DNA from: an uncultured archaeon
GTDB taxonomy: Archaea; Asgardarchaeota; Lokiarchaeia; Sigyniarchaeales; Promethearchaeaceae
Assembly: GCA_964426185.1 (NCBI GenBank)
Contig: CAYRPF010000125.1
Location: 1 to 5,262 of the forward strand
DNA: 5,262 nt
Direction: 5' to 3'
Shown: one piece after another, positions 1-5,262 of the stretch
Numbering within the stretch: the stretch's first letter is position 1
How the letters are laid out: each line of letters starts with the position of its first letter
Made by a program: the position numbers and the translations under genes
Notes under the pieces: generated by a model
What the model was told of the DNA's origin: nothing
The model's database searches: none
The model's input: the letters and a program-made list of their open reading frames with translations, nothing else

Positions 1-1130
1 CTTAATTTTTCCTCGGTAAGAAATTCATGATTTTGAGTAAAGATCCCCCGAACCACGCCCTTTTGAATTAATTTAAATAAAGATTTACGCGCCAGTTCTG
101 GTGCAATTTTTAGATGGCTTGCAAGTGAACTGATTAAGAATATTCCGTTTTTAATACAATAATTCTCAATTTCATTTTCGAGTTCCACTTCCGAAATGGT
201 TTCCTTCCCACTGTCTGCAAAAAATGCAGTAATAATCTTATTGCGCATCATATTCATGATATAATTCTTAACGTTGCCTTCGGGGATTTCCACTCTTCGA
301 GCAAATTCGTAATGCACAATTTTTCCATTATTGTTTAATTCCTGCAATATTAATTCAATTAAACCTTGCTCGATATAATATCGATTTTTTGTGTGGGTAA
401 ATGTGCCTCGGAGTTTATGCTTTCTAATCAATTCTATAATAATTTTAATGACGGTATCAGAAGAAGTGGATAATTCTGATTGAATTTGCAGTAAGTCTAA
501 AAATCCGTTAGATTGGAGATCAGCTACTAGTTTTGTTTCCATTTGATCTGTAAGGTGAATAAAAACATGCTTCTTCTTATCTAAAAAGCCACGAATCACC
601 CCAAAATTTATTCTTTCGCTAATTATGGTTTCAATTTCCTTCTGATTGAGACCATACCTCATTTGGAGTAAATGAAAAGGAGTTTCCACACTTTGCTCGA
701 GATCTTTTACGAAACAATTTAAACAAAACTCGATCCCCTTTCTTCGGCGAAGACGTTCGTTACATTTATCGGCATGACGCGAAAGTCCATATTTTTCAGC
801 TTCTCTTTCGATGTACCGCTCTGAACTTCCCAAAATTATGGGTGAATTAGTACGTGAATTCCAGGCACATTTTGTACATTGGAGATAGAGCTGTCCACTT
901 GGAAGTGTTTTAAATTCTAACAAGCCTCCACATTGCGGGCATTTGCTTTTTTCCAAGATCTGACATCGACCATGCCTTTCATCGGCTTGTACTCTATTTA
1001 ATTCCAACATGGGGTGCTTTTTACAAAAATATACGTCGGTTGAACCGGTGTGTTTGAAACAAAATTCTTCCCCACAATTTGGACAAACATAATTAATTTC
1101 CGTACTGTTGCAATATTTACATGTGCCTAT
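1..1130 (-). CDS. Multi-zinc-finger protein with tandem winged-helix (PCI/DDRGK/UFL1-like) repeats; 3' end truncated by the window edge; start codon uncertain
   Basis: Manual translation of the minus strand shows no stop from the in-frame TGA at 1169-1167 down to base 1. From ATA at 1130 it reads IGTCKYCNSTEINYVCPNCGEEFCFKHTGSTDVYFCKKHPMLELNRVQADERHGRCQILEKSKCPQCGGLLEFKTLPSGQLYLQCTKCAWNSRTNSPIILGSSERYIEREAEKYGLSRHADKCNERLRRRKGIEFCLNCFVKDLEQSVETPFHLLQMRYGLNQKEIETIISERINFGVIRGFLDKKKHVFIHLTDQMETKLVADLQSNGFLDLLQIQSELSTSSDTVIKIIIELIRKHKLRGTFTHTKNRYYIEQGLIELILQELNNNGKIVHYEFARRVEIPEGNVKNYIMNMMRNKIITAFFADSGKETISEVELENEIENYCIKNGIFLISSLASHLKIAPELARKSLFKLIQKGVVRGIFTQNHEFLTEEKL. It is probably absent from the ORF track because it has no stop in the window. 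The first in-frame ATG is at 1010 (residue 41). Confidence is for coding status; the family call is less certain. Confidence 0.9.
   Translation of the reverse strand, partial: MGTCKYCNSTEINYVCPNCGEEFCFKHTGSTDVYFCKKHPMLELNRVQADERHGRCQILEKSKCPQCGGLLEFKTLPSGQLYLQCTKCAWNSRTNSPIILGSSERYIEREAEKYGLSRHADKCNERLRRRKGIEFCLNCFVKDLEQSVETPFHLLQMRYGLNQKEIETIISERINFGVIRGFLDKKKHVFIHLTDQMETKLVADLQSNGFLDLLQIQSELSTSSDTVIKIIIELIRKHKLRGTFTHTKNRYYIEQGLIELILQELNNNGKIVHYEFARRVEIPEGNVKNYIMNMMRNKIITAFFADSGKETISEVELENEIENYCIKNGIFLISSLASHLKIAPELARKSLFKLIQKGVVRGIFTQNHEFLTEEKL
6..713 (-). repeat. Four tandem ~60-aa protein-level winged-helix repeats within the first CDS
   Basis: The Gly codon of a recurring NG motif (SNG/NNG/KNG) lies at 504-506, 324-326 and 144-146, an exact 180-nt period. 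The wing motif (IRGF/LRGT/ITAF/VRGI) has its G/A codon at 588, 405, 225 and 45. Each unit follows helix, NG-strand, helix-turn-helix, beta hairpin. The repeat shows in the protein and is not a close DNA repeat. Confidence 0.85.
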
Positions 1131-1137
1131 TTTAATC

Positions 1138-1142
1138 CCTCC
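1138..1142 (-). promoter_or_regulatory. Shine-Dalgarno-like GGAGG upstream of the zinc-finger/WH gene
   Basis: The minus strand reads GGAGG-GATTAAA-ATA-GGC-ACA-TGT, so GGAGG ends 7 nt before the in-frame ATA at 1130. Confidence 0.55.
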
Positions 1143-1209
1143 ATACGGGATAGTCTTCGCATTAAATCATAAGTTTTTTTTTCTTATGTACTTACTGGTT
1201 GTAGAAGTC

Positions 1210-2580: not shown

Positions 2581-3615
2581 TCACCAATTATAGGTATAAT
2601 CGCCATTAGCTATCTTTTGGGCAACTCGTTTCGTAGGAGGAAATACGGAAGGTAAAAGTTCATCAACAACCACTGTCGTGTGTGTATCGCGGATGGGATA
2701 CTTATGATAAAGTTCTTTGATGAAATTGTTGTATTCGGTTAAATTTCGAGTGCGAACCACTGCCATTAACCCCGCTTCATTACCTGTTCGATATAAATCG
2801 ATGATATTAGGATGATGAACCAAATTTTCTGCCAAAGTGGAGTAATCTGCAATTCGCTGCGGTTTAATTTGTAAATAAAATTTGGTGGCAAAATCATGTT
2901 CAAAGAGACTTTGATCCGTTTTTCGAAGAAAATATATCATTTTACGGGGATTATAAGTCAATGTGAATCGAGAAATAATATGTTCAGCAGTAAAATTTGA
3001 AAATTCACGCGATAAATTTATATGGGAAATAAATTCGATTTCTTCAGGTTTTAGCAATGGTTGATCTTCCCTCTCAGGCCAGCGATATATATTGAAATTC
3101 TTTTTTAATAATTGGAGTAATCGCCATTTACTATCGTTTTCTTCTAAAGTTTTGGTAGGATATTTTTTATTCAAGATAAAGCCCCCAATCTTATAAATAT
3201 CAATGCATTCAATTATTCTATATGAAGAAGAAAATGTTTGGGCGATTTTTTGGTCAATTTGATTCAATAATTCAGCAAACTGCCTTTTTGTTTGAACTTC
3301 GATTTTTAGAATTAGTGAATAATCCCCTAAAATGCCGTCTAAGTTTACAATTTCCTTAAATTGTGAAATATTATCTAAAAGATTTTGTTCAGATGGATTT
3401 GTCTTAATTTCCATGAAGGAATACTGCAGGTTAAGCACATGGGGATCGAGTAATATTGTAGGGGAATGAATTATGCCCGTTTGCCAAAGTTGTTTCAAAA
3501 ATTTGGATATTGTTTGGCGGGAAAGCCCTAATTTTTGGGCCAGTTCATTAATATGTGCGCGTGAATTCAAGAATAACATTTCTAAAAACTGCATTTTTTG
3601 TTCGAGAGTAACCAT
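2581..3615 (-). CDS. Lrp/AsnC-family transcriptional regulator, tandem double module (HTH-RAM, degenerate HTH-RAM)
   Basis: The N-terminal HTH is NSRAHINELAQKLGLSRQTISKFLKQLWQTGII, followed by the linker ILLDPHVL and a first RAM domain (EIVNLDGILGDYSLILKIEV). A second module follows: IISRFTLTYNP, then PNIIDLYRTGNEAGLMAVVRTRNLTEYNNFIKEL...IRDTHTTVV. The track start is GTG at 3627; ATG at 3615 is preferred. Confidence 0.85.
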   Translation of the reverse strand: MVTLEQKMQFLEMLFLNSRAHINELAQKLGLSRQTISKFLKQLWQTGIIHSPTILLDPHVLNLQYSFMEIKTNPSEQNLLDNISQFKEIVNLDGILGDYSLILKIEVQTKRQFAELLNQIDQKIAQTFSSSYRIIECIDIYKIGGFILNKKYPTKTLEENDSKWRLLQLLKKNFNIYRWPEREDQPLLKPEEIEFISHINLSREFSNFTAEHIISRFTLTYNPRKMIYFLRKTDQSLFEHDFATKFYLQIKPQRIADYSTLAENLVHHPNIIDLYRTGNEAGLMAVVRTRNLTEYNNFIKELYHKYPIRDTHTTVVVDELLPSVFPPTKRVAQKIANGDYTYNW

Positions 3616-3628
3616 AATAAATTTCACG

Positions 3629-5210: not shown

Positions 5211-5262
5211 GTTAGCAGATTCTCATTCAGATATTCATCTCATTCTGCCTAATCTCTAATGA

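Follow-up and report, generated by a model that had tools for sequence, protein, structure and literature searches.

The window analysed here, a stretch of 5,262 nucleotides, corresponds to positions 1-5262 of contig C125, and the sole long open reading frame (ORF) within its positions 1-713 lies on the minus strand, spanning 3..1010 from its first ATG (336 amino acids) and remaining open at the contig start. An earlier note had described positions 1-713, which correspond to residues 100-336 of this ORF, as an array of winged helices (WHs) running on past the window edge, and the motifs quoted there occur in the sequence as written. The array does run on: the contig end truncates the ORF, and a search for the full reading frame located the remaining 419 codons in the same assembly, at G000:C27:34926-36182(-), with ~10 residues of the protein missing in the assembly gap between C125 and C27. 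Window 3 to ~1136 (-) would be the 5' part of one gene, followed by the assembly gap and by a 3' part at the end of C27, and the product would be a scaffold protein of ~800 residues in a Lokiarchaeon from the genus of Ca. Harpocratesius repetitus. The features of the window are as follows.

3..8, minus strand: first two codons of winged helix 5 (PCI-like WH); the gene then leaves the contig, with WH5, linker, appendage and Vps28 C-terminal domain (CTD) on C27
9..188, minus strand: winged helix 4, residues 275-334, pairing with UFL1 WH2 in the array-level alignment (AlphaFold2 (AF2) model, alignments, Pfam)
189..368, minus strand: winged helix 3, residues 215-274, pairing with UFL1 WH1 in the array-level alignment (AF2 model, alignments)
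369..548, minus strand: winged helix 2, residues 155-214, contiguous, equivalent to the composite WH (C-terminal part of DDRGK1 plus UFL1 27-58; unit profile, colinear alignment)
549..728, minus strand: winged helix 1, residues 95-154, equivalent to the DDRGK1 WH (human 206-265; AF2 model, profile, unit profile)
729..1127, minus strand: Cys-rich N-terminal region with an AN1/HIT-like cross-brace finger, a CPxC...CxxC zinc ribbon and more Cys pairs (from the sequence)
1128..1136, minus strand: probable start region, ATT (1134-1136) or ATA (1128-1130) (sequence and ortholog comparison)
1137..1142, minus strand: GGAGGG, a Shine-Dalgarno-like motif before the probable non-canonical start (read from the sequence)

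The neighbouring genes encode an AdoHcy hydrolase, an Lrp/AsnC regulator, an acyl-CoA dehydrogenase, an unknown protein and a proteasome beta subunit; no Ubl, E1, E2 or ESCRT gene is found among them, and they offer no functional clue. Synteny is kept in both complete genomes examined, including the nearby proteasome beta-subunit gene. A 246-aa gene downstream on C27 gives a weak ABC_transp_aux hint (19.4 bits) that recalls the N-terminal end of a WH-appendage protein of 1257 aa from a different lineage, and a link between these two proteins was rejected (BLASTP E 0.28; the neighbour in MK-D1 is unrelated).

Translation probably begins at a non-canonical codon. From the upstream TGA (1167-1169) to the first zinc finger there is no ATG, GTG or TTG, and a GGAGG-type motif stands 4-9 nt ahead of an ATH codon both in the window and in seven Lokiarchaeaceae orthologs, while an ATG occupies the equivalent position in more distant orthologs. 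The finger downstream of the start is under purifying selection (pN/pS 0.08-0.3). The Cys-rich region is kept in all orthologs and extends to the array itself, with its last CxxC placed where helix 1 of WH1 begins; Pfam returns weak zinc-ribbon, IBR and AN1 hints for it, all under cut-off. This N-terminal part of the scaffold may comprise about four zinc-binding modules, and the N-terminal sequence shows no hydrophobic segment, holding the cysteine-rich modules instead.

Window 3-728 (-) covers four complete winged helices of ~60 residues (units 1-4) and the opening two residues of a fifth (unit 5). The AF2 model of an ortholog from the same genus (85% identical; alignment of 27 sequences) has a pLDDT of 90.7 and a pTM of 0.75 over the array, and contains five tandem H1-b1-H2-H3-b2-b3 winged helices that start at model residues 3, 61, 120, 180 and 239. 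The proposal of at least four WH units is therefore borne out, and the 60-residue period claimed with it holds in the model (59-60 residues) but is weak in the raw sequence: the top two self-similarity shifts are indeed 120 and 60 residues, but they lie ~1.3-2 SD over the mean of the shuffled maxima and under the highest shuffled value. A repeat claimed from self-identity was accordingly rejected, since these shifts do not surpass the shuffled controls, and the repeat is established here through profile and structure.

The identity of the array emerges from profile searches. The UFM1 E3 is unusual in being a winged-helix scaffold in which one WH is assembled from two proteins. When an array profile was searched against 177,635 PDB sequences, the top match was the human DDRGK1-UFL1 chimera 8b9x_A (E 1.4e-20, 76.6 bits), aligned in a single colinear stretch with profile positions 5-217 on chain positions 13-231. 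Matched separately, profile positions 4-85 align with DDRGK1 206-286 (E 3.4e-9) and positions 88-216 with UFL1 27-156 (E 2.5e-8), in agreement with the suggestion that unit 1 and the start of unit 2 follow DDRGK1 and the rest follows the UFL1 N-terminus; the protein has a DDRGK1-type C-terminal WH followed by a partial WH. All profile matches to UFL1 fall within 27-233. In a Foldseek search with the array model, UFL1/DDRGK1 entries were again best (7.7e-13 to 2.3e-9; 8qfc_B 5.8e-12), such that both profile and structure comparison identify a tandem WH array of UFL1-type packing and sequence.

Considered one by one, units 1-4 each match DDRGK1/UFL1 best; units 1, 3 and 4 are not register-specific. 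The unit 1 profile alone finds DDRGK1 first (32.2 bits), and the DDRGK1 WH is the best match of unit 3 (35.7 bits) and of unit 4 (34.0 bits); because these three units each favour the same human WH, part of the colinear score could come from generic array-to-array matching. Judged by its profile, unit 2 alone fixes the register and is specific for the composite WH, matching chimera positions 79-132 at 29.6 bits, UFL1 27-58 at 21.2 and the DDRGK1 WH at 17.6. The Pfam model E3_UFM1_ligase (PF09743; cut-off 23.2 bits) scores 24.2 bits in the window fragment, where its best stretch is residues 244-315, and 33.7 and 57.6 in orthologs; among 14 control prokaryotes, not one gives it a match at cut-off. 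The DDRGK model (PF09756; cut-off 27.8) is unspecific, with matches in 9 of the 14 controls, one of them above cut-off; it scores 22.0 bits in the window and 26.7 and 45.5 in two orthologs. Only profiles worked for these comparisons, phmmer with single sequences against the PDB (the window protein, the C57 paralog and the f18 protein) yielding nothing useful. A homolog search with the array profile, in which a word pre-filter restricts the candidates, returned three fragments and no eukaryotic sequence.

The array may instead be a generic WH repeat of PCI, ESCRT-II or transcription-factor wHTH type, with a likeness to UFL1/DDRGK1 common to any tandem WH array, an alternative that had been raised with the original proposal. 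The shared preference of units 1, 3 and 4 and the wide reach of the DDRGK model would both fit such a reading, as would the fact that PCI is the highest-scoring Pfam family (41.4 bits in the window; 41-69 across window and orthologs), above E3_UFM1_ligase. However, this above-cut-off PCI match covers only positions 29-81 of 84, the WH part, and the helical solenoid that a PCI domain requires precedes no WH in the AF2 model. The best PCI protein, CSN4, reaches 4e-6 through unit 5 only (among the best 60 of 108 matches), against 1.4e-20 for the chimera, and SelB and ESCRT-II are absent from the best 60 of the 108 profile matches with E up to 1. In Foldseek, SelB (8e-6) leads the matches beyond the UFL1 family at seven orders of magnitude from UFL1/DDRGK1, while ESCRT-II (1.7e-3) and PCI (about 1e-3) are 9-10 orders away, and the EAP30 Pfam model stays at 15.6 bits, its cut-off being 26.8. 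These profile and Foldseek comparisons largely refute the generic reading, which we consider very improbable. The outcomes that the earlier note had named as counting against its proposal, namely scores no better than those for generic wHTH or PCI profiles and packing unlike that of UFL1, were looked for and did not appear, and its description of a single-chain relative of the UFL1/DDRGK1 scaffold stands. The array is homologous to and colinear with DDRGK1 (C-terminal WH, partial WH) and then UFL1 (partial WH, WH1, WH2), and the WH built from two chains in eukaryotes is one contiguous domain here, unit 2.

Across the whole gene, the predicted domain order is zinc modules, five tandem WHs, a probably flexible linker, rich in Ser, Pro and Gly and some 25-30 residues long, an adaptin/COPI-type appendage (likely a beta-sandwich plus platform), and a four-helix bundle of the Vps28 CTD type. 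The C-terminal part has an AF2 pLDDT of 90.4 and finds COPI and AP2 appendages in Foldseek at 1e-10 to 1e-9, and the appendage is followed by the Vps28 CTD within the same protein. Full-length orthologs of 756-810 aa are present in 32 of 40 related genomes, among them Ca. Lokiarchaeum ossiferum and Promethearchaeum syntrophicum MK-D1, and Ca. Harpocratesius repetitus has one as well; the H. repetitus protein, 85% identical over residues 1-336, is a species-level ortholog. Asgard multidomain proteins that combine E3 UFM1-ligase-1-like WHs with an adaptin/COPI appendage and Vps28 have been described (Liu et al., bioRxiv 10.1101/2020.10.19.343400, Fig. 5a; Nature 2021), and Picchianti et al. 2023 (PMC10183829) trace UFL1 and DDRGK1 to Asgard archaea and suggest a UFM1-independent function. 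The scaffold family with its full architecture, zinc fingers included, and the Asgard origin of UFL1/DDRGK1 are therefore already published, and the novelty first attached to a prokaryotic occurrence was overrated, since the host belongs to the Asgard archaea, where this family of eukaryotic-signature proteins was on record. The new element, a modest one, is that the array stays colinear across the winged helix that is split in eukaryotes.

A search of this genome, which is 92% complete, for the rest of a UFM1 system came up empty: Ufm1, CDK5RAP3 and Peptidase_C78 (UfSP) have no Pfam match at E <= 1 and UFC1 has only 11-13-bit matches; the companion genes whose presence the earlier note had proposed to check are thus found neither in the genome (UFM1, UFC1, CDK5RAP3) nor in the neighbourhood (Ubl, E1, E2). 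At cut-off, the Ufm1 model matches in none of 201 Asgard genomes and UFC1 in 7 of the 201, with none in family f1 (zero of the two sampled, plus this genome) and 1 of 41 in f3. Families f1 and f3 both carry the scaffold protein. Koestlbacher et al. 2026 (PMC12962969) report structure-based Ufm1 homologues from nine clades of Asgard archaea, and a divergent Ufm1-like protein may lie beyond Pfam's reach.

These data bear on whether the scaffold is the working E3 of a true archaeal UFM1-like conjugation pathway, whose divergent E2 and Ubl sequence models would have missed. The homology of the array to the UFL1/DDRGK1 scaffold, the structurally modelled Ufm1 homologues and the UFC1-like E2s of a few Asgard genomes all point in that direction, but the pathway components are unmatched in this genome, UFC1-like genes are as rare as stated among f1 and f3 genomes, no Ubl, E1 or E2 gene lies near the scaffold gene, and the UFC1-binding N-terminal helix has no counterpart, the alignment beginning at UFL1 residue 27. 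We regard this possibility as very unlikely. Because the UFL1 N-terminal helix is lacking and UFM1, UFC1, UfSP and CDK5RAP3 were not found, the scaffold is, on present comparisons, unlikely to be a UFM1 ligase, and it most likely functions without UFM1.

The homologous eukaryotic rod clamps the 60S ribosomal subunit, and structures of the 60S-bound E3 (8ohd, 8qfc) show UFL1-DDRGK1 on the ribosome. The Asgard array may be a curved, stiff rod for docking to some large partner; the appendage would then be a hub that binds short peptide motifs, and the bundle of Vps28 type could connect to ESCRT-II/III-type partners; we infer all binding partners and the cellular role of the scaffold. The zinc fingers and WH array could alternatively bind RNA or DNA directly, in the manner in which the SelB winged-helix array binds SECIS RNA, and would then serve as an RNA or ribosome tether rather than purely as a protein scaffold. 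The position of the SelB C-terminal array as best match outside the UFL1 family, the ribosomal location of the eukaryotic complex and the basic character of the zinc region (pI 9.2) and of units 1, 2 and 5 (8.0, 8.1 and 9.8) would suit such a role, but acidic values are found for unit 3 (5.8) and unit 4 (6.1), and the whole array is just mildly basic (8.7). We consider direct nucleic-acid binding as the mode of action unlikely. This alternative concerns function only and is compatible with DDRGK1-UFL1 homology. Taken as a whole, one split gene encoding a scaffold of ~800 residues, with a WH array homologous to and colinear with DDRGK1-UFL1 that would act as a docking rod without UFM1, is the best explanation of the locus and one that we consider highly probable.

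The earlier note had likened the array to a natural DDRGK1-UFL1 fusion. One unbroken colinear chain is indeed present, but an unsplit, ancestral-like state is at least as likely as a fusion. We tentatively propose, as an idea that falls somewhat short of probable, that Asgard single-chain arrays keep the unsplit UFM1 E3 scaffold, that DDRGK1 and UFL1 arose by gene fission inside the WH of unit 2, and that the original rod was UFM1-independent and, in Lokiarchaeales, linked with a Vps28 domain of ESCRT-I type and an appendage hub. The unsplit-state reading covers both the family of the window gene and stand-alone four-WH proteins of ~255 residues in other Asgard lineages. Asgard WH-array families also include a HEAT-WH paralog of the C57 type and ~385-aa proteins bearing a hydrophobic segment at the N-terminus. 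As a system of ER-ribosome quality control, UFMylation is essential; the contiguous WH with colinearity across the DDRGK1/UFL1 junction provides a testable model in which its E3 came about through fission of a pre-existing, UFM1-independent scaffold; if this is true, the pre-eukaryotic role of the scaffold could be tested in cultured Asgard archaea (MK-D1, L. ossiferum). The value of the finding is limited in that the family and its Asgard origin are in print and its function is predicted only.

Among known systems, human UFL1-DDRGK1 (UFBP1; PDB 8b9x, 8c0d, 8ohd, 8qfc) consists of two chains, whereas the Asgard protein is one chain with five winged helices. UFL1 residues 1-26, the UFC1-binding helix, have no counterpart, as all alignments begin at UFL1 27; the first half of the contiguous WH stands there instead and aligns with DDRGK1. 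The UFL1 C-terminal helical domain is absent, the array being followed by linker, appendage and Vps28 CTD; the DDRGK1 transmembrane anchor and its long helix with the UFM1-interacting motif are absent too, and unlike the human complex the Asgard scaffold bears zinc fingers, the appendage and the Vps28 CTD. Relative to ESCRT-I Vps28 (CTD 2j9w) it lacks the Vps28 N-terminal core and steadiness box, and relative to the AP2, AP4 and COPI appendages (1e42, 2mj7, 1pzd) it lacks the adaptin trunk, its Vps28 CTD and appendage being fused to an unrelated N-terminal half. In the PCI subunits of the proteasome lid, CSN and eIF3 (PF01399), a helical-repeat subdomain carries one WH, which unit 5 matches and the other units match more weakly, and the WHs of CSN4 and Rpn proteins superpose on array units with an rmsd of 1-2 A; the Asgard array consists of tandem WHs with no solenoid. 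Tandem WHs are shared with the C-terminal four-winged-helix array of SelB (1lva) and with ESCRT-II Vps22/Vps25/Vps36 (2zme, 3cuq), at Foldseek values of 8e-6 and about 2e-3, respectively, against 7.7e-13 for UFL1/DDRGK1, EAP30 also falling under its Pfam cut-off. The proteins of Liu et al. have the same domain set and order as the window gene, with no architectural difference other than the truncation of the window copy by the contig end, and their description is silent on the colinearity with DDRGK1 and then UFL1 that the array displays.

The source assembly of the window (3.26 Mb, 92% complete) interrupts the scaffold gene at a contig end. The window spans contig C125 from its first base to base 5262, and the sole long frame across positions 1-713 lies on the minus strand, running for 336 codons from its first ATG (window 1010) off the contig start. 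Residues 100-336 of this frame contain the motifs on which the earlier note based a DDRGK1-UFL1-like winged-helix (WH) array extending beyond the window edge, and the remainder of the gene was located on another contig of the same assembly.

Remaining piece of the scaffold gene
G000:C27:34926-36182, minus strand: 3' piece, 419 codons in frame, at the C27 contig end

Both pieces are open in frame at the gap (C125 start, window 1-3, and C27 end), where ~10 residues are missing when reckoned against a same-genus ortholog. Full-length orthologs (756-810 aa) are encoded in 32 of 40 related genomes, and orthologs are present in Ca. Lokiarchaeum ossiferum B35 and Promethearchaeum syntrophicum MK-D1; full-length forms turned up only in the organism's own order, with other WH-array architectures elsewhere in Asgard archaea. 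Metabolic genes, a regulator gene and a gene for proteasome beta surround the scaffold gene, and nothing in this neighborhood backs any partner. A 348-aa Lrp/AsnC-type protein (window 2581-3627, minus strand), longer than the usual Lrp, combines one N-terminal HTH with two AsnC_trans_reg (RAM) stretches. Synteny of its gene with the scaffold gene is seen in the two complete genomes compared, those of MK-D1 and of Ca. Harpocratesius repetitus (Lokiarchaeia), which belongs to the same genus as the window's organism.

An AlphaFold2 model of the array, built from an alignment of 27 sequences (A1), has a pLDDT of 90.7 and a pTM of 0.75. In it, winged helices of the form H1-b1-H2-H3-b2-b3 follow one another in tandem every 59-60 residues, five in all; the window covers units 1-4 and reaches the opening codons of unit 5. 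The raw sequence resembles itself only weakly: the two top-ranking shifts, 60 and 120 residues, do not rise above what shuffled controls give. It is therefore the profile and the structure, and not self-identity, that confirm the array of at least four units described in the earlier note.

When the protein is searched against Pfam, three families are of relevance.

Pfam scores (bits) of the scaffold protein
PCI: window 41.4; orthologs 60.5 and 68.7; cut-off 22
E3_UFM1_ligase: window 24.2; orthologs 33.7 and 57.6; cut-off 23.2
DDRGK: window 22.0; orthologs 26.7 and 45.5; cut-off 27.8

The DDRGK model is unspecific, matching in 9 of 14 control prokaryotes; E3_UFM1_ligase reached its cut-off in none of the 14. 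The decisive tests were a search of PDB sequences with profile A1 and a Foldseek fold comparison. The top profile match is the human DDRGK1-UFL1 chimera (8b9x; E 1.4e-20, 76.6 bits), aligned in a single stretch (profile 5-217 to chain 13-231). Taken alone, human DDRGK1 206-286 aligns with profile 4-85 (E 3.4e-9) and UFL1 27-156 with profile 88-216 (E 2.5e-8), so the two human proteins abut in the middle of unit 2. The top PCI protein, CSN4, matches unit 5 only (E 4e-6). With Foldseek, five UFL1/DDRGK1 entries lead (7.7e-13 to 2.3e-9), followed by SelB (8e-6), ESCRT-II (1.7e-3) and CSN or proteasome lid (~5e-3). Neither outcome that the earlier note had named as refuting its reading (scores no better than against generic WH or PCI profiles, or packing unlike the UFL1 array) was observed, and the UFL1/DDRGK1-like interpretation of the array is supported, with caveats. 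Assignment as a PCI protein was rejected as the helical solenoid is lacking, and as an ESCRT-II protein because EAP30 scores below cut-off.

The DDRGK1 winged helix is the top match of units 1, 3 and 4 individually (32.2, 35.7 and 34.0 bits), whereas unit 2 scores higher against the composite WH (chimera positions 79-132, 29.6 bits) and against UFL1 27-58 (21.2) than against the DDRGK1 WH (17.6). On these unit profiles the homology is robust at the family level, and the register is pinned mainly by unit 2 and the array-level alignment. A family of stand-alone four-WH Asgard proteins of ~255 residues (L037, L039 and L048-L059; families f7 and f29) also aligns colinearly with the chimera, more weakly (E 1.4e-7). 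A single chain therefore seems to be the Asgard norm, so that an unsplit state is more likely than the secondary fusion suggested by the earlier note's reading. The literature searched holds no statement of this colinearity across the split winged helix.

Beyond the homology, membership of the UFM1 E3 finds no support. As the alignment opens at UFL1 residue 27, nothing in the protein corresponds to the N-terminal helix with which UFL1 binds UFC1, and neither the C-terminal domain of UFL1 nor the membrane anchor of DDRGK1 is present. In this genome (92% complete) the Ufm1, CDK5RAP3 and UfSP families gave no matches and UFC1 only hits of 11-13 bits; among 201 Asgard genomes, none reached the Ufm1 cut-off and seven that of UFC1, none of them within this organism's family. 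Of the proposed UFM1 E3 scaffold relative, it is the array homology that stands.

Related proteins occur in other contexts. This genome also encodes a paralog of 924 aa (G000:C57; L015:361-3135, plus strand) that represents a second UFL1-like architecture: its N-terminal region is HEAT/ARM-like, its WH array scores 35.2 bits against E3_UFM1_ligase (profile 28-214), and its tail is a coiled coil. In a few other Asgard genomes, UFC1 is the leading Pfam family for E2-like proteins (L044:1465-2283, minus strand, and L046:1501-2085, plus strand; 39.4 and 27.3 bits, cut-off 25, profile 7-150 of 155), and this model matched in 0 of 14 controls; UFC1 is given as exclusively eukaryotic in PMC10183829. 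Another Asgard protein of 1257 aa (L038:2767-6537, minus strand) joins an ABC_transp_aux/GIFT-like N-terminus to a DDRGK/UFL1-like WH array and an appendage module. The 246-aa gene adjoining the scaffold gene on C27 gives a weak hint to ABC_transp_aux; its pairwise match to the 1257-aa protein is not significant.

The frame is still open ahead of the first ATG, and this stretch codes for a conserved finger of AN1/HIT-like type, with further cysteine pairs after it; Pfam gives only sub-threshold zinc-ribbon hints for this cysteine-rich N-terminus. In window 1011-1169 (minus strand), no ATG, GTG or TTG lies between the upstream TGA and the first zinc finger, which is under purifying selection (pN/pS 0.08-0.3). 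In the window and seven Lokiarchaeaceae orthologs (L003-L009), a GGAGG motif lies 4-9 nt ahead of an ATA, ATT or ATC codon, itself 2-3 codons ahead of the first Cys, and more distant orthologs have ATG at this position. This sequence pattern suggests a conserved isoleucine-codon (AUH) start.

Downstream of unit 5, a Ser/Pro/Gly-rich linker leads to a C-terminal region whose AlphaFold2 model (pLDDT 90.4) is matched by Foldseek to the appendages of COPI and AP2 at 1e-10 to 1e-9. This module recurs alone in hundreds of proteins of other architectures: the appendage and helical module (~420-700 of the full-length ortholog P0006, outside the window) gave 645 hits at E <= 1e-3, most to the module only, in proteins that range from 200 to ~4900 aa and vary widely in what stands N-terminal to it. 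Liu et al. (bioRxiv 10.1101/2020.10.19.343400) described Asgard proteins in which Vps28/Vps23, C-terminal domains of adaptin/COPI and E3 UFM1-protein ligase 1 are fused, and Asgard 'UFM1' winged-helix proteins served as an outgroup for Hatano et al. (PMC9192718); the scaffold protein is of this already known kind.

A ~385-aa WH-array protein of family f18 (L036:1238-2392, plus strand) has a hydrophobic segment at its N-terminus and in this recalls the topology of DDRGK1. For the scaffold protein, the analysis directly shows the structure of the gene, the folds, the homology and the distribution. The homologous eukaryotic rod acts as a clamp on the 60S subunit. By analogy, we infer that the rigid winged-helix rod of the scaffold protein may dock on a large particle, and that the flexible linker would join it to a peptide-motif hub and to a Vps28-type bundle that could contact ESCRT-II/III.
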